Origin: Cyanophora paradoxa CCMP329
Lineage: Eukaryota; Plantae; Glaucophyta
DNA length: 64,000 nucleotides
NCBI GenBank assembly: GCA_004431415.1
Contig: QPMI01000161.1
Coordinates: forward strand, 62,001 to 126,000
Direction: 5' to 3'
This document shows, one piece after another, positions 16,321 through 43,529 of this stretch. Each line of letters opens with the position of its first letter. Within the stretch, counting starts at the first letter, position 1. The notes under the pieces were generated by a model, which saw only the letters and a list, made by a program, of their open reading frames with translations, was not told the DNA's origin and made no database searches. A program made the translations under genes and the position numbers.

Positions 16321-16629
16321 CTAGAGCCGTGTCTTCTTTCTCTCTATGTGCGATGAGCGCGCTCATGGCAGCGCATGCACAACAGCGCCGGCAGCGCTAG
16401 CGCTAGAGCCGAAGCAAAGCACTGTTCGATGCGCACACGCGCATATGCGTGCACGCGTGCGGCGTGCGGCTGGCGCGTGTCGTTGCTAGCTAGCCGCAGC
16501 TGGCCATGGCGAGCGCGACCTCTCGCAACGGCAGGCCATAATTTTTCAGTGGGTGTACCCCCTTTGCGCCTCGCTCTACCCCCCACAGATAATAAGCCAG
16601 CTTCTCAGCTCGGCTTCCCAGCTCGTGCC

Positions 16630-19600: not shown

Positions 19601-20078
19601 CAAGGTCATCGAGAAGGGCGGCGCCTCGATCGGCTTCGAGATCGGCAACGAGGACAGCGAGGAGGAGAACAAGTACGTCCGCATCAAGTCGCTCGTGCTG
19701 GAGGAGCTCAAGCAGTACTTCCGCCCCGAGTTCCTGAACCGTGTCGACGAGGTCATCGTCTTCCGGCAGCTGACCAAGTCGGAGGTCCGCGAGATCGCGG
19801 ACATCCTCCTCAAGGAGGTCTTCGACCGCATGAAGACCAAGGGGATGTCGCTGGAGGTCACCGAGGCCTTCAAGAACCGGCTGGTGGACGAGGGGTACAA
19901 CCCGAGCTACGGCGCGCGGCCGCTGCGGCGGGCGATCATGCGGCTGCTCGAGGACGAGCTCTCCGAGTCGATGCTCTCGGGCCGCCTCAAGGAGGGCGAC
20001 TCGGCCATAGTCGACGTCGACGCCACCGGCCAGACCAAGGTCCTCGTCTCCGGCGAGGTCGCCCCCGCCAGCGCCTAA
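16630..20078 (+). CDS. clpC: Plastid-targeted Clp protease ATP-binding subunit ClpC (multi-exon)
   Basis: About 109-aa transit peptide, then [13 protein letters not shown]...[18 protein letters not shown]1 GEPGVG|KT, NBD2 [25 protein letters not shown] ClpP-docking loop, GARPLRRAI. Confidence 0.95.
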
Positions 20079-20560
20079 GCGCCAGCCCGACGGCGCCAGC
20101 CCCGCCCGCGCCCCGCGCCCCGGTCCCGTGGAACTCTCTCCTCCTCCGCGACACCCCTTCCCCTCTGCTTCCGCCCGCCCCGCCGCCCCCGCGGCGGCGG
20201 TCGGGCTCGCGCCTCCCGCCGGCCCGCCGCCGGGGGTTTGCAGCAGAGCCGCCGCTCTCCTTCCTCCCCCTTCTCCGCCCGCGGCTCGTAAGCCACAAGG
20301 TTTCGCCACAAGCTCATTCGATTTCAATGCAGACGACTCTGTACCAGTACTTACTCGGGTGCCAATTTCAACAAATGCATTTGCAATTTGCCTTCGGGTC
20401 CGAGCATGCCGTGCCGTCGGCACGGGGTGGGCGGGCGGGCGGGTGCATGCGGTGCATGCACTATTGGGTGGGGCGCGGCCGCGCGTGATCAAATCGGTTT
20501 GGGCACACGTGCACGCAGGTACAGGGTCGAGGGCGGAAGCGGAAGCGGGGGGGCGGCGCC

Positions 20561-25598: not shown

Positions 25599-25859
25599 CT
25601 GTAGCTGTAGCAAGAGTCGTGCATCAGGGCCTAACGGGGGCATCGGCGAGTGTAAATAGTCGTCTTCGTGTGGATGGGTGGATCATCGGATGTAACATCG
25701 AATCTTTCATCTTAACGCACTAGATCTCTGTCTCGATCTTAAGCTACATCTCTGTCGACCTCGAATCATGACGGACCGTCGGACGCTGAGCTGAGACTGC
25801 CAGGCTGTGTGCACGTGGAGGGCAGGGGCGGGGCGCAGGCGCGGGCAGGCGGCTAGTGC

Positions 25860-26356
25860 ACATGACATATGCGCATTACACCCAAATTTTAGCGCCTTTT
25901 ATTTACGACATTCAGTAACAACTTTACGATTCCCGACAATCGGAAAATATCACCACCCAATAAACCCATTTAATCGAGAGATTCCCGATGAAACCTACAA
26001 CAATCGAGAGATTCCCGACAATTCACCATCGGACAATCGATGAAATACCCATTTAATCGATTGAATCCATAAAAAACAAGCGCATTACACCCAAATTTTA
26101 GCGCCTTTTATTTACGACATTCAGTAACAACTTTACGATTCCCGACAATCGGAAAATATCACCACCCAATAAACCCATTTAATCGAGAGATTCCCGATGA
26201 AACCTACAACAATCGAGAGATTCCCGACAATTCACCATCGGACAATCGATGAAATACCCATTTAATCGATTGAATCCATAAAAAACAACAACCACTAAAC
26301 CATTCACAGTTACACCCGTTACACTTCCACATCTCCGATTGATTCACATTACACCC
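25860..26356 (+). repeat. Left terminal inverted repeat (497 bp) containing two tandem 209-bp units
   Basis: Starts ACATGACATATGCGCATT. Units at 25871-26079 and 26080-26288. Reverse complement of 37548-38044. Confidence 0.95.
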
Positions 26357-26357
26357 A

Positions 26358-26681
26358 TCACATTCGCATAAATTGCATCCAAGTAGCAGGATTAGCAATA
26401 CTTACGTCTGATTCGGAAGACATACCTTTTTGGTAATTATAACAGAATTCACAAAGTAGTCCCTGAGACATTGGTTTGAGTTTTTCAGTATCTCCACAAA
26501 TCATACAACAGTTTCGGGTTCCCATTCGTTCATACATAGCATTTGCTTTTGCCTGTTGTGAATGTGTTAATTTCAATTCGCCGACGTTTTCATTTACCAT
26601 AGAAACAACCGGACGTCCACTTTTAGCGCCGACGTATTCAGTCATATTACGATGTCGTTCACTTGCTTTTCTCTTACCCAT
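26358..26681 (-). CDS. PLV small zinc-ribbon protein (107 aa)
   Basis: CMIC...CEFC (CxxC...CxxC); basic N-terminus; upstream promoter-like motif on the minus strand. Confidence 0.6.
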   Translation of the reverse strand: MGKRKASERHRNMTEYVGAKSGRPVVSMVNENVGELKLTHSQQAKANAMYERMGTRNCCMICGDTEKLKPMSQGLLCEFCYNYQKGMSSESDVSIANPATWMQFMRM

Positions 26682-26716
26682 CGTTATTACTACTTCTCAG
26701 ATTCCTTTTAAACTTT

Positions 26717-26763
26717 GTCAAATTTTGCCCCGATGCAAAAAATGACGCTTTAAAACTTAAAAC
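26717..26763. promoter_or_regulatory. Putative bidirectional early promoter
   Basis: CAAAAAATGAC (+, 26736-26746) followed by ACTTAAAA, and CAAAATTTGAC on the minus strand (26717-26727), between divergent ORFs. Confidence 0.55.
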
Positions 26764-26787
26764 TTTACAACGATACACTTGTAATCA

Positions 26788-27300
26788 ATGGCGACCAAAC
26801 GAACCGCGGACATTCTGTGTTATAACATGGACTTCTTACCTAATTCAAATAGTGTTTACGCTGATTTTTTCGGAGATAATCTAACTGATGAATCTATTTC
26901 GATTATATTTGGTGTATACAAGTGTTTGCATCAATTCCAAGGTGTAACATCAGATATGCTACACAAATGCTTCCTTACCAATAGACTCGATGAATTGATT
27001 CATAAAAGAAATAAAAATAATCCATCGGGCTATTTCAAGAAGTTGAAAGAAAAAGGAATTATTATAGGAAAAACTTGTTTTTCAGAGCAGCAAGACATAC
27101 CTAAATTCGAAATACTTGATGACAGTTATTGTATTAATTGTGGGCATGCAGATTATCTAACAGAAAATCACCCACGATTCACAGCGCCACCTGATTGTTA
27201 TGTTTGTTGTGAATTTCTTTGTAAAAAGTGCGCATACTACGACAAACAAAAGTATTCATTCGTGCATTTCAAATGTAGCCCAAAAATGGGCAAAAAATGA
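26788..27300 (+). CDS. PLV Cys-rich zinc-finger protein (170 aa)
   Basis: CINC...CYVC-xxx-LCKKC...HFKC in the C-terminal third. Confidence 0.6.
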   Translation: MATKRTADILCYNMDFLPNSNSVYADFFGDNLTDESISIIFGVYKCLHQFQGVTSDMLHKCFLTNRLDELIHKRNKNNPSGYFKKLKEKGIIIGKTCFSEQQDIPKFEILDDSYCINCGHADYLTENHPRFTAPPDCYVCCEFLCKKCAYYDKQKYSFVHFKCSPKMGKK

Positions 27301-27328
27301 TGTCCCAAAAAAATAACAATTAAAAACA

Positions 27329-27742
27329 ATGGATTACTACGGAGTTTACATGTTGGATATTGAAAATCCGGAATTACATAAAGATCTTCTCGAAAACAAC
27401 GGGGCTGAATGGGATCCGGACACAAAATTATGGTTTGTCGAAGACGAAAATAACGAACTTTTAAAACAATTCCGTGTAAAACATCCGGGTGAATTCGACC
27501 AAGATTACGTTAAACAATTCCACCGCCAGTATTTCGTGGCTGATATCAAAGCAAGACTACCGGAGATTGCGGCAAAGCGTATATTTACTCAGTCATCATT
27601 ACGCAAATATATTAAAAAACAAGGCGCTACATACGATCCTCAGTATCGTTTATGGTATGTTACTGATCCTGAAAGTGAGATATGCAAGATCTTTAAGATG
27701 TTCACACTCGAACAGGTAGAAGATCTGAGAAGACCAAATTAA
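27329..27742 (+). CDS. PLV protein with two DUF5710-like repeats (137 aa)
   Basis: NGAEWDPDTKLWFV and QGATYDPQYRLWYV match the GA(R)WDxxxKxWYV pattern. Confidence 0.65.
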   Translation: MDYYGVYMLDIENPELHKDLLENNGAEWDPDTKLWFVEDENNELLKQFRVKHPGEFDQDYVKQFHRQYFVADIKARLPEIAAKRIFTQSSLRKYIKKQGATYDPQYRLWYVTDPESEICKIFKMFTLEQVEDLRRPN

Positions 27743-28491
27743 ACCGTAATCGTCGTGGGTTCATTACTAATTCTTATCGATTCTCTCTTTTTTATCGCTC
27801 GTCTCTTAACAAACTTGCGAAACGCTTTCATGTCATCATCTGTTATTATTGCACGGTCTGTGTATACTTTGATGTCATAACCTTGTAACCCAGTTATAAC
27901 GGTCTGATAATTGTAACCCCAAAGTCTATGTAGTTCTTTGTAAGTCTTCTTGTCCAATCCACCGTTATATTCATCGAATGCACAGTTAAACTCTTTCTCA
28001 TTTCCTAAAATGTTAAAGAATACCACAAATTCCACATTACGACGAATGGTAGTAGAAATAGAACATATACGTTGGACATTGAAAATAACGGTTATACCAT
28101 AATGTCTTCCGCTCGTTACCAGTTTGGATAACACAGCCGAATTATGCATATCCAAATTAGAACCTATCATGTCATCTAAAATTATTACCAAACTATTACG
28201 CTTCTCATTGTTTTCGATTCGTTTCTTTTGCATACTAATTAGTTTCACTACCACATTATCATCCCATTCCTCATAGATGTTACCAGGATGCGTTATATCT
28301 CTGAATTGCCCAGTAAACGCAGTGGAACTAAATATTACAATCTGATCGATCTTATCCCGCAGTTCATAGAGTAGATACTTACAATAAGTTGTCTTACCAG
28401 AGTTGGAGCGTCCGGCAAGCAAAAAACGCGAAGGGAGTTTAGCTGTCCTTGCAGGGTCGAATTCGGGAATATCATCAAGGTCGATCTCCAT
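27739..28491 (-). CDS. A32-like (FtsK/HerA) genome-packaging ATPase
   Basis: Walker A GRSNSGKT, Walker B VIILDD, arginine motif GRHYGIT-VIFNVQ and IRRN. Confidence 0.93.
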   Translation of the reverse strand: MEIDLDDIPEFDPARTAKLPSRFLLAGRSNSGKTTYCKYLLYELRDKIDQIVIFSSTAFTGQFRDITHPGNIYEEWDDNVVVKLISMQKKRIENNEKRNSLVIILDDMIGSNLDMHNSAVLSKLVTSGRHYGITVIFNVQRICSISTTIRRNVEFVVFFNILGNEKEFNCAFDEYNGGLDKKTYKELHRLWGYNYQTVITGLQGYDIKVYTDRAIITDDDMKAFRKFVKRRAIKKRESIRISNEPTTITV

Positions 28492-28590
28492 TACTACGTT
28501 GTCCGTTACAGTAATAAGATAAAAAACAAAAGCATGCGCTAACCTATACGCGATTCGCAGGCTTCCTACTTTAAAGAAAGAAAAGAACTT

Positions 28591-29817
28591 TTAAAAGTTG
28601 GAAACTTTCAGTGTCGAAATGTTATAGCCATTGAGAACCATGACATTGTGACGGAGCGCGAAAATGTCGACCTGAACCGGTGCAGCATCAGTGCAACCAG
28701 AAACGGTCAGATCCATATACGAACTCGAACTATTGAAGAAGTCCTGATAACCCATGACTGAATTATGGAGCGAATCCTTACCATTCTTGCTGAGAACAAC
28801 ACCATAGACACATCCACTCTCGAAACCAAAACCAGCATTGCCTACGGTTGCACCTTTGTAATGCGATGGGATATGGTTAGCAGCAGAAAGGAAACCAGAT
28901 ATGGGTTTATTAGAGATTTCAAGCGATCGGTTGTTGTGGAAAATTTGGAACTCATCGATTTTCACAGCAGATCCAACACCGTAGAAATCGGAATGAGTGT
29001 ATTTGTCCAGCTTGTTAACGTCACGAACAGTCATAAGGATTGAATGCACCAGACCGGAAACGTTAGCCAGTGTAACCTCGACCGCCTCGCCAGAATCGGC
29101 AGTTTTAAGTGATCGGGTCTTTTTGTGGATGACTTCCGTAATTGGAATGCGAATACCTCCCTGTTCATTCGCCATTTTAAGGAGAGTCTCAGCCTCCGCA
29201 GAAGCAATGTTAACGAATTGACAGATTAGCCCGCAATCACTCACGGTAACAGTTCCACCAGCAGGAACGTTAACTACCGCAGCCTCGCGAAAATCTACCT
29301 CGATGGTGGGCATATCCGCAAGAACGCAAAGGGGGAAATATGCATCGTCCCAGAAAGCAGCCGGAATTTTAACTACATATTCAGTCGACTTGTCGGTAGA
29401 TTCACGGGTAGCTTCCGCTCCGAGACCAAGGGACATATACATAGCGCTCAGTCCCGATACATCATTATCGATCAGAGTGTTTACAGTGATCCAATCGCCA
29501 GGGATGATATACTTGAACCCACCATGGACAAAACGAACCTCTTTAATGAAAGAAGAACCACCATTGGGAAGATCACAAGCAACACCACCACCGGTAGTAA
29601 CCTTAAAGTAAAGCGAAACGCCACTAAGCAGTTGCTTGCGTGGTAGATCAAAGTAAGCGGTCGTCTTAAACCCGAAAGTGTTACCGCGTGGGCGAACCTG
29701 TTCAAGGAACGGCTTATACTTGGGGTTGGTTCCAATTTGGAGACCGGGAGATAGGTAAATTTGATCCGATCCGGGAGTAACGAGGAGTTCTTTAAGGGTC
29801 GTTCCAGTAAGCGCCAT
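28591..29817 (-). CDS. Putative major capsid protein (double jelly-roll), 408 aa
   Basis: Size, beta-rich composition, YFDLP...LSGVSLYF and YFPLCVL-x-IEVDFR segments, and position between the packaging ATPase and the penton-like gene. Fold not verified. Confidence 0.75.
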   Translation of the reverse strand: MALTGTTLKELLVTPGSDQIYLSPGLQIGTNPKYKPFLEQVRPRGNTFGFKTTAYFDLPRKQLLSGVSLYFKVTTGGGVACDLPNGGSSFIKEVRFVHGGFKYIIPGDWITVNTLIDNDVSGLSAMYMSLGLGAEATRESTDKSTEYVVKIPAAFWDDAYFPLCVLADMPTIEVDFREAAVVNVPAGGTVTVSDCGLICQFVNIASAEAETLLKMANEQGGIRIPITEVIHKKTRSLKTADSGEAVEVTLANVSGLVHSILMTVRDVNKLDKYTHSDFYGVGSAVKIDEFQIFHNNRSLEISNKPISGFLSAANHIPSHYKGATVGNAGFGFESGCVYGVVLSKNGKDSLHNSVMGYQDFFNSSSSYMDLTVSGCTDAAPVQVDIFALRHNVMVLNGYNISTLKVSNF

Positions 29818-29869
29818 GTCTTATGTTTAAAATACGAAAAGAAATTTTTAAATTACATTATTAAACAGA

Positions 29870-30775
29870 ATGACGCGTTACTATCTTAATATTGATTCCC
29901 GGGATCGGGATGATGGAACCCCTACAAACTATTCTTATAAACTTCCCCATGCAATCCAAAATGTTAAAGCATGCCGTGTTACCAATTTCGAAATGTTTAA
30001 TAACATTTACAATCTCAGCGAAAACGGAGCGCTTGTAACATCCACACGCGATGGACAAGGAGTAACCAAAACGAAAAACAACGTGATTTCGAAAGGGACT
30101 TACACAGCGGATAGTTTGGTGAATTATCTAAATGCTCTTCTGATATCTCAGGTCTACGGTGCAGCAGGGACTACATACACCCGTCATTTCAATGTGTCTT
30201 ATGATCCAATAACAATGAAACTAAGGATTATTGGTGAAGTAGCATTTACCATACGTTTCGGTAGCATGATTTTAGCCAATTTCCTCGGTTTCCCGGATCC
30301 ATCACTAAATGGCTCGGCGGGTGTAGGTTATCCATCTACTCCTCTCGATTCACCACAGCAAGTAGGTGCTTATACTTATAATCACTATCTCGACAGTGTC
30401 ATACCGCTCGACCTTCTGTTTAATTCTTACATCCTTCTACATGTCGATCCACTCAAAGGTAATTACGTAAGCAAGAATACCAGCGACGATAAAGCGTTAG
30501 CTAAAATTGAAATTGACCAGACGGTAGGTAGTCTCCTAAAATACGATTCTACCAATAACTCTATGATCATCCATGAGCAAAACGGATTAGTGGAAGTTGA
30601 GACGCTTAAAGTGCGTTTGACGTATTGGAATGGTAACGAAACGGACATTACCACGGATTGGTCAATGACTCTCGAACTGATCACCGAAGATGAAAAGGAT
30701 CTTACGAAAGCAGCATTGAAAAACGTTATAAGGGATTTGGAAAATGTCTATTTACCGTTTGGTCGTAATATGTAA
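29870..30775 (+). CDS. Putative minor capsid (penton, single jelly-roll) protein, 301 aa
   Basis: N-terminal LNIDSRDRD...YSYKLP...NV...NNIYN, G(T)YT, LGF and C-terminal LKVRL...DWSMTLEL, typical of PLV/NCLDV penton-like proteins. Confidence 0.8.
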   Translation: MTRYYLNIDSRDRDDGTPTNYSYKLPHAIQNVKACRVTNFEMFNNIYNLSENGALVTSTRDGQGVTKTKNNVISKGTYTADSLVNYLNALLISQVYGAAGTTYTRHFNVSYDPITMKLRIIGEVAFTIRFGSMILANFLGFPDPSLNGSAGVGYPSTPLDSPQQVGAYTYNHYLDSVIPLDLLFNSYILLHVDPLKGNYVSKNTSDDKALAKIEIDQTVGSLLKYDSTNNSMIIHEQNGLVEVETLKVRLTYWNGNETDITTDWSMTLELITEDEKDLTKAALKNVIRDLENVYLPFGRNM

Positions 30776-30807
30776 TTTTGCGTTATATTTTTGTCTTGTT
30801 ATTTCAA

Positions 30808-31584
30808 ATGGCTCGTAAGACACAACCGAAGAGCGGCTCGCAAGCGAGCCTTGGCTCGCGCCTTTTCTTAGCGAAACCCGTCGAACAAGCGGAACCGGAA
30901 CGGAAGCATTACAAGAAATCGAAAGGAACCGCAGCATACGGAACCGCTGATATCGAAAAGAATATTAATAATACGATTAATTCCAGTGCTGTGGCGCCAG
31001 TAGACGACATTAACGATGGTAACGCCTTAGTTGAGCAAGTGCCGCTAAACCGTATGCCGGGTGCAAAGCGTGGGATTAAGAAAGGACAATTTAAGAGCGC
31101 GACAATCGATAAGGTCGATAAAAAGTCGACTCTTCTTAAACTCCTCGATGGTGGCGAGCGTCTGTATTCCACATATTCGGAAAAAGACCACCGTAACCGT
31201 TACTTTATCAGAGCAACTACCGGTGGACTGAAAACGATCACATACAAACACGCTAAAAGTCTCATTGAGGGAATCGCCGATGAGACGCAGAAAGAGAAGA
31301 AGATAACGGAGCAACCGATAACCAAAGAGAAGGTAGACAAGAAACCCGATGTTACGTTTGATGTCCTTCCCGATCCAATCAAAGAGGAGAAACACACACC
31401 GACGGAATTAATCGCTAAGACGATCGATTACCAAGAATCCAATAAAACGGATTTGCCGGTGTTAAATAAATCAATCTTGCGGGTTGCTACATCGCAATCT
31501 GACCCGCTTAACTCCATTCCCAATGCGGCGCCCATGCTTTCCGGATTCGCTAAATTGGGTCTCCGTCCCGGTTACAGGCGTTAA
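30808..31584 (+). CDS. PLV Lys-rich hypothetical protein (candidate virion core protein)
   Basis: ATG at 30808 (MARKTQPK...), Lys-rich, directly downstream of the penton-like gene. Confidence 0.6.
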   Translation: MARKTQPKSGSQASLGSRLFLAKPVEQAEPERKHYKKSKGTAAYGTADIEKNINNTINSSAVAPVDDINDGNALVEQVPLNRMPGAKRGIKKGQFKSATIDKVDKKSTLLKLLDGGERLYSTYSEKDHRNRYFIRATTGGLKTITYKHAKSLIEGIADETQKEKKITEQPITKEKVDKKPDVTFDVLPDPIKEEKHTPTELIAKTIDYQESNKTDLPVLNKSILRVATSQSDPLNSIPNAAPMLSGFAKLGLRPGYRR

Positions 31585-31807
31585 GCATCATTCTTACTTT
31601 AAAATTTTCTTTTCAAAGAATAGCGTTAAACATCCATCTCCGAATTTTAGCGCTCACGTTTACTTATTTTTATAAGTGGCGTTGTAGAGAAGTTGTGATA
31701 TCCATGTATCACGCTTTTTAATCACCTGTTCTACGGGGTTCAATCGTAGAATCGAGGAAGCGAAGCCTTTCGACTTATTTTTCCGGCATCTTCTTATTAT
31801 CGATGCG

Positions 31808-31890
31808 CAAAAAATGACAGCGTTTTAAAAAACTGATCGACATGTTATATACACGATAAGAAAAGGACTTAAAGATTTCTTGCTATATAT
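31808..31890 (+). promoter_or_regulatory. Putative early promoter
   Basis: CAAAAAATGAC (31808-31818), ACTTAAAGA (31867-31875) and TATATAT upstream of ATG 31912. Confidence 0.55.
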
Positions 31891-31911
31891 CAGAAGAGGA
31901 ACAGCAAGAGA

Positions 31912-32166
31912 ATGCCGCTAAGCGAATCTCAGAAACGCGCGATTTATCGCTACCGCAGCACAGAAAAGGGTATGTTAGCGCTTGCGCGATTCAATGAAAA
32001 GCGCAATGTTAAGTGGAGTGAATTGTATAATAACGATGACGCATTTAGACAGAAACACATAGCAACGTCATGCAAGGCGCAGTATGTAAATAACACGATT
32101 CTATACATTAAGTATCTATTCGACGTCCCGCGAACTAATCGTGGTCGCCCATCAATTCATTGTTAA
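31912..32166 (+). CDS. PLV small basic helical protein (84 aa), possible DNA-binding
   Basis: MPLSESQKRAIYRYR N-terminus, terminal RGRP, preceded by the shared motif. Confidence 0.55.
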   Translation: MPLSESQKRAIYRYRSTEKGMLALARFNEKRNVKWSELYNNDDAFRQKHIATSCKAQYVNNTILYIKYLFDVPRTNRGRPSIHC

Positions 32167-32336
32167 TCCTTTTTTCCCGGCGCGATCGCTGAGGAAGACA
32201 GGCGCAACCGCGCTTAAAACAATACACTGTTTGAGTTATTTTTAAGACCATCGAATGGTGGTCGACCCTTTTGTTATTTTTATTAAACCCTCAAAGTCGC
32301 ATGCACTAATCGATTTTGCGGATTTTGCGGTGGCGC

Positions 32337-32392
32337 CAAAAAATGACGCAATGTATGAAAAGCACTTAAAGAAATAAAATATAGTGTATATA
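32337..32392 (+). promoter_or_regulatory. Putative early promoter
   Basis: CAAAAAATGAC (32337-32347), ACTTAAAGA (32364-32372) and TATATA upstream of ATG 32410. Confidence 0.55.
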
Positions 32393-32409
32393 ATAAGAAC
32401 GCCTATAAG

Positions 32410-35400
32410 ATGTTTTCATTTGCAACAGTGAAGAATATCATCGGATCTGTGGTAGAGTCCATTAGCAATCTACCCGGTATTCGCAGCATCCCGTTTATCG
32501 GTAATGCAATTAAGCGAATCGCTAATGATCGTTTCGAAAGAGTCGTAAAGGAACTCGAAGCAAGGAAGAGTGAGAAGAAGGAGAAGACTAAGGAGGAAAT
32601 CCGCGAAGAGCGGAAGAAGCGCAAGCAGGAGAAGAAGGAGAAGCGCGCACTGAGAACGATTAAGAACATTCAGAAGCAAGAAGGGAAGAAGTTCAAGGGA
32701 AAGGTAAGGCGTCTCATTCGTCGTATTGAAGCAGAAAATGGCGAAACTGTTTCGGTTCATGTAAGATTCTATACACTTCCCGATGATATCGATAATCTAC
32801 CACAGGGCTATGATGTTATCTTACACAAAGACACGCCTTACGTTGAGACACAGAAGAGCGGAAAGAGGGCATTAATTATGACTTGCCCGAAAGACGTATT
32901 GATTGCAAGACTTACCGAAGTCGAAGACGAATTTAATAACTTTCTTGCCGTTTGGTCGCTCGATACTATCGCCGCTTTCCTTCTTAATATCGCTGATCGT
33001 AACGCAAATAACAGGGATTACAATTATGTGCGAATTTTCGCTTACCCACAACTCCGTGAGTCTCCTATTTCATATCCCGATGTTATGACAATTGAGGAAA
33101 TTGTAGTAAGTGACAATACCACTGTATACCCTCTGAATGAAAGAGCGCTTAGAGACGGAGAGGCGCCTAAGATCGTTTCGCGTTTCATCAAATATTCACT
33201 TAATGGTGGCGCAAAATCTGTATTGGATCAGATTAAACCCGATGGGTCACTTATCATCAAGGATTGCTTAATAGAGGCGCTACATCAGGTCATTGTGAAA
33301 TCTTTCGAATATGCCCACAGTATCAGCAAATACAAGAAGGTTAAGTATTCGAAGGAATGGCTTTATGAGCAGATCAAAGGACACGCGCCTACTGACACAT
33401 CCGATTGGGGGACGTCCTTTAACGAAATACTACCATTCTTGCAAAAGTGGCGCATCCGCTTTATCGCAATCGGAAAAGACGACAAGGTTATACATTCTCT
33501 GTGTTACAAACCTACCCGGACAAATTCACACCTTGTCCCGGCAAGCGTTTACGTTCAGATCTCTAACGATCACGTGTATGTGTTGAATAAAGACCTTAGT
33601 AAACTTGTGCGATCTTTCAATGGAACAGCGGCGCGCGAAACAAAAGCGGTGGGTTCATCGTCGTTAAAATACAAGATCAAAACACAGTTTAACGATATCA
33701 GCTATCCGGCATACTCTGAGGAAGAAATAGTGGAGATTGTTAAACGTGAGAAGGAAAACGCAACCTCAAAAATCACGATCACTTACAGTAAACCGTTATT
33801 CGAATTGTTGGGAAGTTTCAGAAGAGCAAACCACGAAGTTAACGCGACTATTTCCGATGAAGGTATAGTTAGCTACATCCATTACAAGATCGAAGACAAA
33901 GATGTAGTTATACTACCGCCAGGCAATATGGTGAATATGGATGATGTCGACGTTAACCTTAGGGATGAAGAACACCGAAAACTCTTTAACGAAATGTCGC
34001 AGATGCTAAACCGTGCGCTCATTAACAAACATGTTAAGAGCAAATACAACCCGGAGACATTCGCCGCATTCACGAAAGGACAACAGAGCGCATTAAATGG
34101 GTTTTTCGTGACTTCTAACGCTGAATTGCGGGAATTGTTTGAAGGTGTTATGTGTGGCGCGATCGATACGTATAAATTGGATATCTCCAAAGCATACACA
34201 CATATTGTATCGAAACTCATCAAAAACTTCCCGGTTTTCAGCTCATTCGATCGATTCGAAAAGGTTGTGGTAACGTGTAGCGATGATATCGAAGCGGACG
34301 CCTTCTATTCAGTGAAAGTAAGAGCGAAACACTTTACGGTAAATCGTAAAGACCAATTGATTAACAACATGTCGCCATACAAACGTATCCTTGTAGACTC
34401 AAAATACAACCTTCTGTATGGTGGCGTGTTGAAAGAGTTCTACGATGACATCCGCGACGACGTGATTATAGAAGCAGTGGTAAGACCATACCGGGTTGTT
34501 AAAAACGTCACATTGCAGGCTTTCAAGCAGTTGTTTGCGTCTAACCTTTCGATCAAGGAAAAGAAGGATATCAGTAATCACAATATCGGGAAGTTTGGTA
34601 AGAAATCCCAGCAAAAAGTGCAAACAACGATATTCTTTAACAAGAACGACGCGCTTAACTTTGTCCGAGAGAACGGCGGTAAACTGAGATCGCTAAATTT
34701 CGATTCAAAGAAGCCGAAGCGGACGACTGTAAGGAATGAGGCAAAGACGGAGACACCGATGTTATGGTATGTAAACCAGCTCGGAGAAGAGAAGACGCTT
34801 ATAGATGGTTTCCTACCTATCCAGTGTCAGATTTACAGTATCATGCGTGGGGTCATGTATAAACTGTCTAAGGATCTATTGGCTAATGGTGTTGGAGTTC
34901 TACGCATCAGAACCGATGAGTTTCTTATAGACAAGCCATACCCATTTGAGCCGTTTGACCGCGACCTTTTCGAAAACACCGGAAAGTATGACGTGAAACC
35001 GTTTAATGTTACTCCGATTATATCACAGGAGTCAAAGAAGAAGCGGAATAATGCTAATGGGTGGATCACATTCGACAGACTGAGACAACGCGACGAGAGG
35101 TTTATTACGGTCGAGAAGGTGAATCATAAGGTGTTCAAGTTTAAGGATGAATACAACGTGGAAGCCATCGTGAATGCTATGGACGGAAAGGGTAACGTGA
35201 TTATTCGCGGTGTCAAACCCGGGACAGGTAAGACCACGTTAGCGAAGGCGATGACACGGAAGTATGGTAAAAACTGTCTTTTCATTGCGCCGACTAACAT
35301 TCGATGCAAGCAGCTACGCATGGAATTGAAAAAGGAGTGGAGCGAAGTTGACATGGTCGATGTGAAGACTATCTACAAGTCACTACATCTGAATATCGAC

Positions 35401-36494
35401 CCCGAGAAGATGAATGACAACGTAGGTAAACAGGTTACCGATTTATCCAAGTATCAATGCTTTGTAATCGATGAGGTTTACCAGTTCCAGATTCGCGAAT
35501 TGGAGGCGTTGAGAGACATTATGACTATCCATTTTCCGGATAAGTTATACATCGTTACGGGTGACCCATTCCAGATTCCACCGATTCAATTTATCGATAT
35601 CGACCATCGCGACTACTACAACAAGATCTTTGACCGGTTGTTTAAGAATGAGGTTTACCTACAAGTCGGAAAGCGACACAAAGACCCCGAAGATCAGGTT
35701 AAAATAGATCAATTGAAACATGATCTATTCGTTACAAAAATGCGTGTTCCGGAGGCAGCGGCGCGGTTGGGTCTTGCAGTTGTGAATGAAATGGAAAAAG
35801 GCGACATTTCCATAGTTCAATCTAACCGCAAGTCCGCGCAAGTGAATAATGAAATGCACAGGATGCTTTACGGTGTTGACATGGTTTATAAGGAAGGCGT
35901 GCATTTGATTGCAAAGTATCAAATCACAACAAATGAGGGTATCATTTATCGCGGATTTGAATATGAAGTACCGAAAAGGTTCTTACGCTAAAAGACATCG
36001 ACAGCGAAGAAATCTATAATGCGAAGCCCGAAGACATCAAATATTTCGCATTATCGCATGGTTTCACTTGTTACAGCATTCAAGGTGACACTATCAGAGA
36101 TAAGCGGGTAGTTGTGTATCAGATGACCTCGCCATACATGACCGCTGAGAGTTTCTATGTTGCAGTTACGCGAACCGAAAGACTTTCTGACACTGTTATT
36201 TTCGTAGATGAGGACGAAAGACGGAGAGTGGGTATGGAGAAGGCAGAGTTTGCCGTTAAAATCAGATCACACAAGGCAGAAGACAAGAAGTGTAACCGTG
36301 AGTTTGACGCAGCAGATTACGTCGATTGGGAATGGAAGGGTTACCGCTTTGGTAAGCAGCATGGACGCTGTGGAAGGTGTGGCGATATTATGGATCCGGA
36401 AGATGCAACAGTAGACCGTTACAACAACGCAATCGCCCACATTAAGCCGAACTGTTTCTTATCTCATAATAGGTGTAATTGTGCAGCGCAGTAA
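32410..36494 (+). CDS. Replication fusion protein: vOTU-like + derived protein-primed PolB + SF1 helicase + HNH-like nuclease; frame break near 35970-35990
   Basis: DCLIEAL/NDHVY. PolB-like LDISKAY, KDISNHNIGK and IRTDE. SF1 GVKPGTGKT, IDEVYQ and GDPFQIPP. The -1 frame continues with HGFTCYSIQGDT and FYVAVTR (motifs V/VI), then CGRC...TVDRYNN..H..NC..HNRCN. Confidence 0.85.
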
Positions 36495-37456
36495 TGGATA
36501 ACATATTATCTTACAAGAAATACCGCCAGAAGTTGATAAACGATAAAGTGACATTTGATGAAGCAGAATTAAAGAAACGTTTTATAAATTCCGAAGTGCA
36601 TCAGATATTCAAGAAACCAAAGAAACCAAAGACATTTCTAAGAATTGTTGCTATGCCTTATTCCTTTCAGGTGGACATAATGAATTTTAAAGGATATCAA
36701 ACCGCGAATAATGGGATTTACAAGATGATAAGTTTTATTGATATATTGAGTCGGAAGGCTTTTGTGTATCCGTTTAAGAAAAATGAAGAAATCCGTAATA
36801 TTTTGAATAAGTTTAAGGTTGAGGCAGGTAAGGTTAATGGATTGGCGGGAGATCATGAGTTTAGCAGTGCGATGTATAAAGAATGGTGTGATGCTAACGG
36901 TGTGAGATTATATACAGATGTGGCGAAAGATGACCATGTAACCGTTGGAAATAAGTTAGGAATTATTGACAGATTCACACGGACATTTAAGCAATATTTG
37001 AGGAAGGCGATGACATCAAAGGGAACCACAAAATGGATAGATTTAATAGGTGAAGTTCTTTCGATTTACAATGGTTCACCTCATAGTTCCTTAAAAGATG
37101 ATTCACCCAATGCAGTATTTGCAAGTGATCAGAAACAGCTTTTTATACATCTACGTGATGTTGTGCATAACAAGCATGTGCAAGAGAAGGAAAAGAAGGA
37201 TACAGTAAAACCGGGTGATACTGTGCGAGTGTTGGAAGGTAAAAAAAGTGCGTTTGAGAAAGAAGGCGCGCGATTCAGTCAGAAGGTCTATAAAGTCGGA
37301 AGATCTGACGGGAATAGGTTTAAGGTGTTGGAGGATATGGACGGAGACGAGAAGGAGGTAAAGAGGCGCTTTAAGAAGCAAGAGTTACAGAAGGTGAGCG
37401 TGAAAGATGTAATTAAGATACCGTCGCAAAAACGAATAGAACGAGTAAAAAGGTAA
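36494..37456 (+). CDS. Retroviral-like (rve) integrase
   Basis: SFQVD, IDILSRKAFVYP, GDHEF, KLGIIDRFTRTFK, YNGSPHSSL and SH3-like KPGDTVRV...FEK...FSQKVYKV. ATG at 36494. Confidence 0.92.
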   Translation: MDNILSYKKYRQKLINDKVTFDEAELKKRFINSEVHQIFKKPKKPKTFLRIVAMPYSFQVDIMNFKGYQTANNGIYKMISFIDILSRKAFVYPFKKNEEIRNILNKFKVEAGKVNGLAGDHEFSSAMYKEWCDANGVRLYTDVAKDDHVTVGNKLGIIDRFTRTFKQYLRKAMTSKGTTKWIDLIGEVLSIYNGSPHSSLKDDSPNAVFASDQKQLFIHLRDVVHNKHVQEKEKKDTVKPGDTVRVLEGKKSAFEKEGARFSQKVYKVGRSDGNRFKVLEDMDGDEKEVKRRFKKQELQKVSVKDVIKIPSQKRIERVKR

Positions 37457-37547
37457 ATGCTGTGAATCAGAAGATGAAGAAGGAAGGGATTAAACCGAAT
37501 CGAAAAGTAACCGTGAGGAAGAAGTATAATTTAAGAAGTAGTGCAAA

Positions 37548-38044
37548 GGGTGTAATGTGAATCAATCGGAGATGTGGAAGTGTAACGGGTGTAACTGTGA
37601 ATGGTTTAGTGGTTGTTGTTTTTTATGGATTCAATCGATTAAATGGGTATTTCATCGATTGTCCGATGGTGAATTGTCGGGAATCTCTCGATTGTTGTAG
37701 GTTTCATCGGGAATCTCTCGATTAAATGGGTTTATTGGGTGGTGATATTTTCCGATTGTCGGGAATCGTAAAGTTGTTACTGAATGTCGTAAATAAAAGG
37801 CGCTAAAATTTGGGTGTAATGCGCTTGTTTTTTATGGATTCAATCGATTAAATGGGTATTTCATCGATTGTCCGATGGTGAATTGTCGGGAATCTCTCGA
37901 TTGTTGTAGGTTTCATCGGGAATCTCTCGATTAAATGGGTTTATTGGGTGGTGATATTTTCCGATTGTCGGGAATCGTAAAGTTGTTACTGAATGTCGTA
38001 AATAAAAGGCGCTAAAATTTGGGTGTAATGCGCATATGTCATGT
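37548..38044 (-). repeat. Right terminal inverted repeat (497 bp)
   Basis: Ends ...AATGCGCATATGTCATGT; reverse complement of 25860-26356 with no mismatch seen by eye. Confidence 0.95.
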
Positions 38045-40473
38045 AGTGCTCGGTCCAGGCGAGGGCGTCGAGGGCGAGCTCGAGGGCGGGGGCCTCGAGC
38101 GGGGCCTGCCAGGCCGCCCCGCAGGCCTCCTCGAGCTCGAGCGCCTCGAAGGGCGCAGAGCCGTGCGCCAAGTCGAGCCCCGCCGCCTCGAGCTCCCCCT
38201 CGGGCCCCCCCCACGTGTACGCTTCGAACGCCTCCCCGGCCTGATCAGCATCCCACGCGCCCCGTGAGCGGCGGGGGCGTCGGCGCGGGGTGGCGCAGGA
38301 GAGGGCGCACATCGGGCGCGGCGTCGGGCGCGTCGACGTCGGAGGAGGCGGCCGCCTCGTCGAGCTGGAGGCCCTTCAGGAGGCGCCCGCAGGCGCCGGC
38401 CCCGTACGCGCTCGCGAACATCTTGCTCCCCATGTCGCAGTTGTACGCCCGCAGGTTGTGCAGGTCCTGCGACCGCCCCGCCCCGCGCGCACCCGAACGT
38501 CGGCCGCAAGGCGAGAGGGGCACATGGGGAGGGGGGCGAGGTGGGCGAGAGCTCGAGGGGTAGGCATCGCCCACCCTCTCTCTCAGCTCCTAGCGGCGTC
38601 CCCGCCCCCTCTCACCTTGGCGTCGCCGTTGAGGACGAGGCCGGTCCTCAGGGCGCCCTTCCGCGCCCCGCTCTTGTCGTAGAAGCCCTCCCCTGAACCC
38701 CGGAGGTCAGAGCTCCCGGAGCGTAGGCTCGGGGTGCAGGTAGGTGGCTGACCGCGCTTGAGGACGGGGCAGCGGGAGGCCGGGGCGTCCCTGGGGCAGA
38801 GGATGGGCACGTCGCGTCCCACGTGCACGAGGGGCACGCCTGTGTGCGCCGCGTCGCCGTCGCCAGTCGTGAGGACGACGGTGCTCCCACCGACCTGCGC
38901 GGTGCTAAGGAGGGGCGGATGGGAGGAGCAGAGGGCGGAGGTGCGGATGCGGCGGACCCAGTCCGGGAAGGTGCCGTCCTTGGAGTAGTGGAGGACGCGG
39001 TCGAACGAGACGCGGTCCCTGCGCGCGCAATCTCCCTCAGAGGGAAGCCGATGCAAGCGGGGAAGGTCGAAGTGCCGGGGCCGGCAGGCAGGACAGGGAA
39101 GGGCGGGGCTGAGCGTGGCGCACCCGGCGGCGCTGGTGAGGTCGGCGAAGAAGCGCGCGAAGGCGGCGTCGCCGGCGGCCCACTGCCCGAACGTGACCGC
39201 CTTCAGGCCCTTCAGGTTGGGCAGCGAGGCCCGCCTCGCCCCGCCCTCGCCCCGCGCGTCGGAGCCGACGTCGCCCCCCGGCCCCTCGTGGAGCCTGCGG
39301 GCCTCCTGTGAGAGGGGCGGGGAGGGGGCGGCTGGCGATGGGAGAGGGGATCCGGAGGGTGCGGGGGCGCCTGGAGCGGAGGAGGGCCTCGACGAAGGCG
39401 AACTGGGCCATGGCGCCCCCCAGCGAGTGGCCCGTCACCGCCAGCTCCCAGCCCCCGGCCCCGGCGCACGCCGCGTCCACCGCCTCCAGCGCCCCCATCA
39501 CCTGGCCCTCGTACGCGCTCCTGAAGCTGGGGGGGGGGGGGGGGGAATGAGGGGGGATACAGTTACAGCTTGAAGGGACGCTTTCGGCGCACTGGTTCTG
39601 AAGGCCGCCGTGGAGGGTGCCGTAGCAGCCCTCGCCGAGGGCGCAGGGCGCCGGCGTGACGTCCGTGTTCGCCTCGAGCTCCCCCGGGCCGTTCGGCACC
39701 GTACCCCGGAAGGCCAGCACGAGCTTGCACTCCCTCGTTCCGTCGAGCTTGAACAGGGCGGCCCCGGTGGGGCCCTGGCCGTTCGAGAACGCGAACCCTG
39801 GCGCCACCTGCGGGGGCGGCCGGGGTCAGGGCCTCCAAACCGAAATCATAGCTAGCCGTACGCGTAGGAATCGTAGATCAATGTAGCTACAGCTATAGCT
39901 GAATTTGAACTGTCCACCAAAAGCCTAGAGAAATTGCTACATGGAAGCTCTTGAGTTTTAGACCTCGATCGGGCCTGGGGCGCACCGGGAGGTGGAAGAG
40001 CTTGAGGATGGTGTAGCGCTCGTCGCCGAGGCGCAGGGCGCGGGAGAGGTCCAGCCCCGAGGCCGCCTCCACGGCCTCCGCCGGCCCCGCCCCCGTCGCC
40101 ATCGCGTACTCCGCCCGGAAGATCCCGTACCTGCGCGGGGAGGGGTACAATGCACGCTCGATCGCGACGGCACCGGATCGGAAGTGGACTGGAGCCGGAT
40201 CCGGAGCGCACGCTGCCTCGCTGAACACCCCCATCTTTTCTATGAACTCCTTCTCCGCCGGGGCTGCCGGCGTGGTTGGCGTTGGAAGGGGCAGGGGCGG
40301 AAGGCGGGGCGCGCGGGGCGGGGTAGAAGCTCACTCAGGTCAACGGGAGCAACGGGAGTTCCACCGTCGGCGAGGGACTTCGGGGGTATCCAGTTCTAGG
40401 GGGGTACGCGTGAGGTAGGGGTACGGTTAGAGTACGCGGGCCGGCTCACCCCCACGAGCCTGGGCGCGTTCAT
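37986..40473 (-). CDS. Class 3 lipase (multi-exon); native stop codon interrupted by the PLV
   Basis: LVLAFRGT, LHGG, AVTGHSLGGAMA (GxSxG), VTFGQ and HNLRAY. The last exon ...LAWTEH runs into the right TIR. Confidence 0.85.
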
Positions 40474-41526: not shown

Positions 41527-43032
41527 CTAGGGCTGGGCGGGGGGCGCCGGGGAGGGGGCGCGGGGGCCCTGGGCGCGGTCGCCGCCGAAGCCGAAGAAGA
41601 GGCGGGGCGGGGCGGAGGAGGCGTCGGCGTGGAGCGAGTTCCACTCCCGCAGCTGCCGCACGGGGAGCGAGTTCTCGACCACCGAGGGCCGCACCAGGGC
41701 CCGCGCCCGGGCGAAGTCCTCCGCCGTCACGGCCCGCATCGCGTCGGCCTCGTAGGGGGCGGCGGCCCCCGAGGCGAGCAGCTCGCGCACGGGCTCGTAC
41801 GCGGCCGCGATGCAGAGGTTCTTGAGGTCGGAGCCGGTATAGCCCTCGGTCGAGCGGGCGAGGGCCGGGACGTCGAAGCCGGGGGCGAGCGACTCGTCGC
41901 GGAGGAGGAGGGAGAGGATGGAGAGGCGCGCGTCGTAGTCGGGGACGTCGATGAGGACGCGCTTGGGCAGGCGCCGCAGCACGGCGTCGTCGAGGTCGAA
42001 GGGCCGGTTGGTGGCGGCGAGCACGACGACGCGCTCGCCCTCGGTCGAGCTGAAGCCGTCCCAGGCCGCCATCAGCTCGTTCTGGAGGCGGCGGCTGGCG
42101 TCGTGGTCCGCGGTGTGGCGCCGGCCCAGCAGCGAGTCGACCTCGTCGAAGAAGAGGACGCAGGGCTGCAGCTTGCGCGCCAGGCTGAAGATGGCGGCGC
42201 CGAACTTCTCGCTCTCGCCGAACCACTTGGAGGTGAGGCTCGAGGAGGAGACGTTGAGGAAGCAGGCGCCCGACTCCCGCGCGAGGGCCTTGGCCAGCAG
42301 CGACTTGCCCGTGCCCGGGGGCCCGAAGAGGAGGACGCCGCGGGTGGTCCGCCTGAGGTTGCCCCGCGCGAAGAGCTTCGGGTGCCGCAGCGGCAGGATC
42401 ACGATCTCGTGCAGGGCCGCCTTGGCCGCCTCCAGCCCCCCGATGTCCTCGAACCGCACCCCGCTGCGCGAGCCGTCGCCTCGGAGCAGGATACGGTAAC
42501 GCAAGGGGAGGCGCGGGGGGGGGGGGGGGGGGGGGGGGGGCCGAACGCGCACATGTCCTCGGGGCGGACGACGGAGGGGAGCAGCTGCTTCTCGGAGCTG
42601 TCCAAATGCGGGAGCACGCTCCGCAGCCTGCCGGATTTCAGGGAGGTCAAGGGGGTAGGGGGGTACGGGGGTAGAGGGGCCGCTGACCGCTCGTCGGAGG
42701 GGGCGCCGCTGCCGGGGCCGAGCTGGGGCGGGGCGGGGGCCATCGGGTGTCGGCCGCCGGAGAGGCCGAGGACGCGCTGGCCCAGCTCCCGCGCCCAGGC
42801 CGGCATCGGGGGGCCCTCCGGCCCCACGTCCGGCCTCCGCCCGCGTCCCACGAGCTCCTGCACGGCCGCCGTCGGTCAGGGGCGGCGAGGGCCGAGGCGC
42901 CGGAAAACGAAGGAAAGGAGGCGAGGAGGAGAAAGGGGCGGGGGCGGGATGTGTGTGGCCGGCTGAAATGGCCGACGGGCCAGAGGGAGGGGCCCGGCGG
43001 TAAAGTGAGGCGGCGTCTCTCTGGGACTCCAA
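41527..43032 (-). CDS. Msp1/ATAD1-like (meiotic clade) AAA+ ATPase
   Basis: VRFEDIGGL, ILPLRHPKLF, GPPGTGKS, TSKWFGESEK, FFDEVD, WDG, ATNRPFDLDDAVLRRLP, GYTGSDL. Confidence 0.9.
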   Translation of the reverse strand: MESQRDAASLYRRAPPSGPSAISAGHTHPAPAPFSSSPPFLRFPAPRPSPPLTDGGRAGARGTRAEAGRGAGGPPDAGLGAGAGPARPRPLRRPTPDGPRPAPARPRQRRPLRRAVSGPSTPVPPYPLDLPEIRQAAERAPAFGQLREAAAPLRRPPRGHVRVRPPPPPPPPPRLPLRYRILLRGDGSRSGVRFEDIGGLEAAKAALHEIVILPLRHPKLFARGNLRRTTRGVLLFGPPGTGKSLLAKALARESGACFLNVSSSSLTSKWFGESEKFGAAIFSLARKLQPCVLFFDEVDSLLGRRHTADHDASRRLQNELMAAWDGFSSTEGERVVVLAATNRPFDLDDAVLRRLPKRVLIDVPDYDARLSILSLLLRDESLAPGFDVPALARSTEGYTGSDLKNLCIAAAYEPVRELLASGAAAPYEADAMRAVTAEDFARARALVRPSVVENSLPVRQLREWNSLHADASSAPPRLFFGFGGDRAQGPRAPSPAPPAQP

Positions 43033-43529
43033 CTGAACCGGAGGCGCACAGCGCTGGCGCGCGGCCCGTCGCCGACGGGCAGTGTTGGCGTCCCGCCGCG
43101 GGAGCTAGGAGGGGGCGGCGAGGGGCGGCGAGGGGTGGGGAGTGTCGCCGAAGCGTATGACCGGCGGGCACGGGATCGGCCCAACGGTAAAGTGAGTTCG
43201 GCTGGTCTTCTCCCGCGCCTTTTGACCCGAACGGCGACCGAAGACGCGCCGAGCGGGCTTCGAAACGCGGGATGAAATAGGGAGCTGGGGGCTAGAGGAG
43301 GGAGCTAGCGGTGGTGTGTAGCGGAGCTGTATAACCGACGCCCCTCGAGGCGGGCGGCGGGCAAGTTAGTCCGCGTGGCTCTGGAATACACTTTGACCCG
43401 TGCCGCGCACCCCGGGGCGAGCCCCGGTAGCGGACAGGCTTCGAAGTATTCCGTCCCGTCCCAAAGAAACGAAAGGCGAAAGAAGAAAGCGGAAAAGGCG
43501 AAGCACATGGAAGAACGAACGAACCGTGA

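Follow-up and report, generated by a model that had tools for sequence, protein, structure and literature searches.

A pPolB-S1H replicase gene, likely encoding a protein-primed polymerase-helicase when intact, is broken by a 13-base loss in an endogenous polinton-like virus of Cyanophora paradoxa

The stretch of DNA analysed here (the window) comprises 64,000 nucleotides from Cyanophora paradoxa CCMP329 (contig QPMI01000161.1, positions 62,001 to 126,000 of the forward strand). It contains an endogenous polinton-like virus (PLV), bounded by terminal inverted repeats (TIRs) and carrying capsid and A32-type ATPase genes but no Ulp1 protease gene, and the subject of this report is the replicase gene of that element. 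With a probability of about 0.88, the gene is a pPolB-S1H replicase (a DNA polymerase of family B that is protein-primed, pPolB, fused to a superfamily 1 helicase; formerly the Tlr1-like helicase) whose intact form is likely to be a self-cleaving, protein-primed, non-proofreading polymerase-helicase, and whose copy in the window has been broken by the loss of 13 bases. This reading is built on the anatomy of the element, the order of the domains, the invariant catalytic residues, the pPolB, superfamily 1B (SF1B) and HNH folds of the models, and the deletion. An earlier reading of the sequence alone (the sequence-only reading) had proposed a four-domain polyprotein of vOTU-like protease, PolB core, SF1 helicase and HNH-like nuclease; its domain calls agree with the conservation and the folds. 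The gene is divided over two frames by the 13-base loss.

Catalytic residues are invariant among distant homologues

The product of the first frame (P0001) was used for a phmmer search of the full library, which gave 366 matches at E<=0.001. The best 150 of these were combined with P0003, a homologue in which both frames are joined in one open reading frame (ORF), and from the resulting 151 proteins the 111 of 1100-1650 aa were kept; 40 fragments or proteins of outsize length were dropped. The median pairwise identity of the 111 homologues is about 26% (600 sampled pairs). C286, H388, D591, K719, G727, D836, G938, G940, K941, E1022, Q1055 and R1089 are invariant in all of them; N723 is kept in 104 and Y596 in 108, and the helicase residues T33, Q38/G39 and R68 of the second frame are near-invariant. 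As a control, the residues conserved at 90% or more within positions 1-900 were counted, and these include 1 of 6 Cys, 1 of 15 His, 3 of 55 Asp (591, 614 and 836) and none of 63 Glu. Given this control, and invariance at such low identity, the motifs are not a matter of chance. The residues quoted in the sequence-only reading (C286, H388, D591, K719, N723, I726 in place of the motif B Tyr, R834-T835-D836, K941 and D1021-E1022) were all correct, and the conservation of C286, H388, D591 and D836 among homologues, which had been set beforehand as a test, was found in 111/111. The first Asp of motif C is absent from every homologue and the Tyr of motif B is replaced in 110.

Four further positions, D614 (109/111), S544, P608 and Y633, are near-invariant without being canonical; D614 may be a functional site specific to this family.

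Polymerase palm, exonuclease remnant and helicase

An AlphaFold2 model of P0001, built with 55 of the 111 homologues, had a pLDDT (score of the predicted local distance difference test) of 76.7 and a pTM (predicted template modelling score) of 0.75. Its top match in the PDB was phi29 polymerase (Foldseek E 4e-7), with which VIA aligned 352-360 residues, over model residues 428-890, at Z 14.3-14.8 and a root mean square deviation (rmsd) of 4.3-5.0, as would be expected of the PolB palm proposed from the sequence. The TPR1/TPR2 regions fall within the aligned range of phi29, for which only the ends are reported. Among viral structures the matches include bidnavirus-like and mavirus polymerases, with H6WBE3 at the top and mavirus at Foldseek E 2.5e-9. 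Alignment of the profile to that of 11 phage pPolBs brought D591, K719/N723 and D836 into register with motif A, motif B and the second Asp of motif C respectively; the score was 25.1 at a probability of only 2.5%, and 20 column shuffles did not exceed 18.3. No match to PolB, OTU or HNH families was obtained for the window protein in Pfam and PHROGs, nor did tblastn of the palm against phages give one.

The sequence-only reading had noted no obvious exonuclease DxE motif and had taken the enzyme to lack proofreading. The structural match to phi29 polymerase begins at model residue 428-429, corresponding to phi29 residue 5-6, and a profile of residues 420-585 aligns to phi29 35-119 with a score of 19.8 (probability 2.8%), compared to at most 12.3 in 30 shuffles, 10.1 for the reversed profile and 9.3-13.4 for three other regions. 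The sole acidic column conserved at 60% or more in 395-590 is E439. It is therefore likely, from model and alignment, that an exonuclease domain persists between protease and palm as a fold devoid of its catalytic residues. Proofreading should be absent because the domain survives only as this stripped remnant; the part of the earlier claim that concerned proofreading stands, there being no conserved carboxylates in 395-590, but the domain itself is probably not missing.

For residues 911-1191 the structural matches are Dda, Pif1 and RecD (Z ~13-14), with profile E values down to 7e-15, and in a PDB sequence search with the replicase the helicase alone was matched. Together with the invariance of K941 and E1022, this upholds the SF1 helicase of the sequence-only reading.

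Protease and terminal-protein candidate

In the model of P0001, C286 starts helix 286-305 and H388 lies on strand 388-391, matching the available text of PMC11161782 (Krupovic et al. 2024), where the vOTU Cys is placed on alpha1 and the His on beta4. The assignment of residues ~255-403 as a putative vOTU-like cysteine protease follows from the invariance of this Cys-His dyad, as the sequence-only reading had it, and from topology and position. That reading had also assigned the role of terminal protein to a basic region covering the first ~250 residues. This candidate was rejected, as the basic charge is confined to residues 40-110 (30 K/R to 15 D/E), with residues 110-250 having 13 K/R to 22 D/E. 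By position, the candidate is instead the alpha/beta domain at ~113-233, in which no terminal-protein linking residue was found.

Is the polymerase active?

Several observations weigh against an active, self-processing enzyme. An OTU structure is absent from the fold lists of the whole P0001 model, which are filled by helicase and polymerase matches, and an Atlas search of the vOTU segment gave nothing; the fold searches were made with whole-protein models rather than single domains, such that the lack of an OTU or terminal-protein match is not evidence of absence. The domain at 113-233 is poorly modelled (pLDDT 32-73) and poorly conserved, its columns being half-gapped. Profile-profile probabilities to phage pPolBs are only 1-3%, comparison of the profile with the single phi29 or PRD1 sequence was uninformative, and in the literature searches made no report was found of enzyme activity for any pPolB-S1H. 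Finally, the altered motifs B and C could mean that the palm is catalytically dead and serves the helicase as a scaffold that binds DNA or primer, synthesis being left to a host or giant-virus polymerase. This was the view of 2016, when inactivation was argued in PMC5499653 with motif 4 also missing. However, both metal-binding Asp residues and the motif B Lys are invariant at ~26% identity, whereas 52 of the 55 Asp residues counted are not conserved, and according to PMC11161782 the same Asp is missing from polymerases that are active, those of mavirus and pipolins among them. A dead palm is consequently considered improbable, and the active, proofreading-less polymerase-helicase predicted by the sequence-only reading gains support from conservation and folds.

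In intact copies, the polyprotein would bind the inverted-repeat ends of the element, and the middle alpha/beta domain, judging from its position, may prime synthesis before being cut off by the Cys286/His388 dyad of the vOTU domain. The palm, predicted to be active from conservation and fold, would use Asp591 and Asp836 to extend the strand without proofreading while the SF1B motor unwinds ahead of it, so that error-prone synthesis would be coupled to unwinding. The rve enzyme would then integrate the element.

A 13-base loss breaks the replicase

The first frame ends inside the helicase, and helicase motifs V/VI and a Cys-rich module are encoded in a second, shifted frame of 174 aa (P0002, 35970-36494). 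Of the sequencing runs of one organism, 14 listed ones contain half or more of the sampled words. In X1 and X8, the contigs have 13 additional bases behind 35970, at full depth; 13 being 3n+1, this fits the frame offset between the two ORFs. Contigs of X15 (35837-36047) and X5 (35510-36103) are identical to the short form across the break, although X5 may be the source of the window sequence. The window copy is thus a real short-deletion allele in which the replicase is broken inside the helicase, and it would yield a 1193-aa protein without motifs V/VI and without the HNH module.

The window copy could still make the full protein if the break were a programmed ribosomal frameshift or an error of assembly. 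The conserved motifs are indeed retained in both frames, and apart from the break the element is intact and its TIRs are identical. Against this, the long and the short form both appear in the run contigs, which rules out a sequencing error, and no X XXY YYZ slippery heptamer was seen in the 35967-35991 overlap; either of these explanations is very hard to credit. An intron was also discarded, as the only GT..AG at the site spans 11 nt.

The C-terminal HNH module

The CxxC...DR.NN..H..NC..HxxCN module described in the sequence-only reading is present in the second frame. The P0002 model (39 homologues; pLDDT 86.0) has HNH domains, weakly, at the top of both structure searches (best E 8.5e-3), in line with the nuclease call; the best HNH fold match is PacI (Z 5.6, rmsd 3.5, 87 residues), with other HNH domains within 1 Z. 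With the HNH module alone, a PDB sequence search gave 4h9d at E 0.41. The module could be aligned in 102 of the 111 homologues, one of these being the GIY-YIG protein P0057, and is missing from the other 9; R150, H157, N161 and C169 are all kept in 93. At the position of the general-base His there is Arg in 96/102 and His in none, and seven residues further on His in 94/102 and Tyr in 5/102. PacI, a member of His-Me finger group 20 (PMC5714182), has Arg93 at the general-base position and a partner, Tyr100, at +7 (PMC13139853). From model and alignment, the module is a predicted nuclease: a Zn-stabilised, PacI-like HNH of group 20, having a beta-beta-alpha-metal fold, a Zn knuckle and Arg for the canonical His.

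Pairwise similarity of the HNH module correlates with that of the palm (rho 0.46) and of the helicase (0.41) over 94 proteins, compared to 0.50 and 0.47 for 78-column control segments of helicase and palm against the other domain, and at most 0.18 in 200 permutations. This shows that module and polymerase have descended together, in keeping with a domesticated role, but co-descent alone does not amount to function.

Two roles of the module have to be weighed. It may have no part in the viral cycle, being either a selfish homing endonuclease or an inert passenger, as is the published reading: in the available text of PMC5499653 and PMC11161782 such domains are interpreted as invasions by homing endonucleases or inteins. 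The exchange with GIY-YIG in P0057, the 9 homologues without the module and the replacement of the canonical general-base His in 102/102 all agree with this, and we would put its chances at about even. It accords less well with the presence of HNH in ~101 of 111 homologues that were found with a query lacking HNH, with the four residues kept in 93 of them, or with a similarity that follows the polymerase about as closely as the control segments do. The role we tentatively prefer, at less than even odds, is that the HNH nuclease acts ahead of rve integration by cutting either the ends of the virus or intermediates of its replication; no published role of HNH in end processing was found in the literature searches. 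A more specific version, which is possible but doubtful, is that the PacI-type HNH of a large pPolB-S1H clade is domesticated and vertically inherited, removing protein-capped ends so that the rve integrase, whose translation is coupled to that of the replicase, receives clean ends, and, jointly with this, that the retained exonuclease remnant reflects an intermediate of mavirus type that is shared, and not a clean loss that took place independently. If end-cutting by HNH removes terminal-protein caps prior to integration, it would settle a step called unclear in the text of PMC11161782 and answer how protein-primed integrating viruses shed their terminal protein.

Relation to known replicases

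The four-domain architecture is not novel. In 2016 the pPolB-helicase fusion was described in PMC5499653 with a palm called probably inactive and a C-terminal HNH in PLVs. In the available text of PMC11161782 the arrangement TP-vOTU-palm-S1H (TP, terminal protein) is renamed pPolB-S1H, with a vOTU domain whose Cys and His are conserved in all PLV and transpoviron proteins analysed there, a variable terminal-protein-like middle domain and C-terminal HNH or GIY-YIG fusions; active protease and polymerase are predicted despite the missing first Asp of motif C, and the label "inactivated" is withdrawn. The sequence-only reading had therefore named the fusion in PLVs, Tlr1 and transpovirons correctly, but its description of such fusions as usually inactivated is superseded. 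Fusions of pPolB-S1H type occur across groups 2 and 3 of PMC13215967, a pPolB-DDE association is noted in 10.64898/2026.10.13.758929, and PMC12721341 has a different SF1-pPolB fusion in which the exonuclease is retained. Architecture and predicted activity being already published, what is added here is a further member of the class, quantitative support in the form of invariant catalytic residues in 111 distant homologues, and two refinements, namely the probable dead exonuclease remnant and a PacI-type nuclease travelling with the polymerase.

The replicase shares with the pPolB-S1H proteins that PLVs, Tlr1 and transpovirons encode the variable N-terminus, alpha/beta middle domain, vOTU Cys/His, palm without the first motif C Asp, SF1B helicase, C-terminal HNH and a size in the range of 1,000-1,400 aa, and with their elements the TIR boundaries, capsid and ATPase. 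It differs in the ~130-aa exonuclease-like remnant between vOTU and palm, an exonuclease domain being lacking according to the text of PMC11161782, in the frameshift of the window copy and in sharing ~20-30% identity with the closest relatives that were found. Tetrahymena Tlr1, compared by its description, likewise has pPolB-S1H, rve integrase and a capsid module, but its C-terminus is GIY-YIG rather than HNH, and the host here is high in GC (guanine plus cytosine). Mavirus pPolB has the same TP-vOTU-palm order, only a remnant exonuclease and the same change in motif C; in mavirus, however, the helicase is a separate one of the SF3 type and there is a Ulp1 protease, a gene for which was not seen in the present element. 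The HNH module resembles PacI in the Arg and its +7 partner, although the latter is mostly His here and Tyr in PacI. A PacI-like HNH is also inserted in the pPolB2 of nematode and oomycete polintons (10.1101/2023.08.22.554363), whereas here it is C-terminal to the helicase, neither free-standing nor inserted in the polymerase. In cryptophyte PLVs (PMC12220804) a helicase-HNH gene also lies directly upstream of rve-INT, but with the HNH described as N-terminal to the helicase.

Word-based homologue searches found little (one match for the replicase and one for the alignment), and no related loci were found in viral contigs, with the palm region, the capsid and P0006 as queries, or in metagenome contigs.

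Anatomy of the element

Coordinates are collected in Table 1. GC content is 41% within the element and ~70% in the surrounding host DNA, and each TIR contains an exact 209-bp tandem duplication (25871-26288 and 37616-38033); a variant of the TIR that is shorter, with the joint 25922-26266, occurs in contigs of X3 and X5. The ATG of the integrase overlaps the replicase stop (TAATG), and the 5-bp target-site duplication is consistent with an rve-type enzyme. In ESM Atlas features the capsid ORF scores 0.98 against clusters with Capsid_N/Capsid_NCLDV in 10-18% of their members, and its Atlas recognition value of 1818 is under the tool's mark of 2300; the word-based homologue search and the related-locus search of viral contigs gave no sequence homologues. 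Neither Pfam nor PHROGs gave a family match for the candidate minor capsid protein, and the Pfam scan found no Ulp1 maturation protease gene among the ORFs of the element. A polinton proper (Polintoviricetes) was ruled out by the absence of the exonuclease carboxylates and of the Ulp1 gene.

Table 1. Features of the element and its replicase gene (window positions)
Feature	Position	Strand	Basis and remarks
Complete endogenous polinton-like virus	25860..38044		12,185 bp; bounded by TIRs and target-site duplication; GC drop
Target-site duplication AGTGC, 5 bp	25855..25859 (left copy); 38045-38049 (right copy)	+ (left copy)	Direct repeat in both flanks
Left terminal inverted repeat	25860..26356	+	497 bp; 100% complementary to 37548-38044
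A32-type packaging ATPase, 250 aa	27739..28491	-	Pfam Pox_A32, E 3e-14
Probable double jelly-roll capsid	28591..29817	-	ESM Atlas features, size, context
Candidate minor capsid protein, 301 aa	29870..30775	+	Solely by position and size
pPolB-S1H replicase gene, first frame (P0001), 1193 aa	32410..35991	+	Ends inside helicase; last few residues out of frame
Variable helical N-terminus, aa 1-110	32410..32739	+	pLDDT 43-68; basic charge confined to aa 40-110
Alpha/beta middle domain, aa 113-233	32746..33108	+	Terminal-protein candidate by position; pLDDT 32-73
vOTU-like cysteine protease (putative), aa ~255-403	33172..33618	+	C286, H388 invariant; topology as in available text of PMC11161782
Probable exonuclease remnant without catalytic carboxylates, aa ~428-560	33691..34089	+	phi29 polymerase structure alignment; weak profile match
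Protein-primed PolB polymerisation domain, aa ~585-870	34162..35019	+	Motif A D591; motif B K719/N723/G727; motif C D836
SF1B (RecD/Pif1/Dda-like) helicase	35122..36203	+	Split over two frames
Frame break	35967..35991	+	13 bases missing behind 35970 relative to contigs of X1 and X8
Zn-binding HNH (His-Me finger), PacI type, predicted	36207..36494	+	D149-R150...H157...N161...N170 (second-frame numbering)
rve-type DDE integrase, 320 aa	36494..37456	+	Pfam rve, E 0.058 (weak); PHROG transposase, E 0.004
Right terminal inverted repeat	37548..38044	-	497 bp

Some minor observations concern the remaining genes. A 137-aa ORF at 27329-27742 contains two DUF5710 repeats (E 9e-9). Of the ORFs at 26788-27300, 26358-26681, 30808-31584 and 31912-32166, two encode small Cys-rich proteins and one a basic protein of 258 aa, and the fourth is 84 aa long; none has a meaningful family match in Pfam and PHROGs. 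The summed contig depth of the ATPase-capsid block (27585-31954), a quantity which does not equal copy number, is several-fold above that of the replicase (32392-35450) in all four runs compared, and many 85-95% variants of this block are present among the contigs; this hints that related structural modules are numerous and go together with other replication modules. At 36453-36549, divergent contigs connect the integrase start to different upstream sequence, and these loose ends suggest sister elements with other replicase C-termini before a related integrase. Nearby host genes (ClpB/ClpC-type chaperone, AAA ATPase and lipase-3; 16357-20488, 41530-43104 and 39040-39825) are fragmented across several frames, as would be expected for a high-GC eukaryote with introns.

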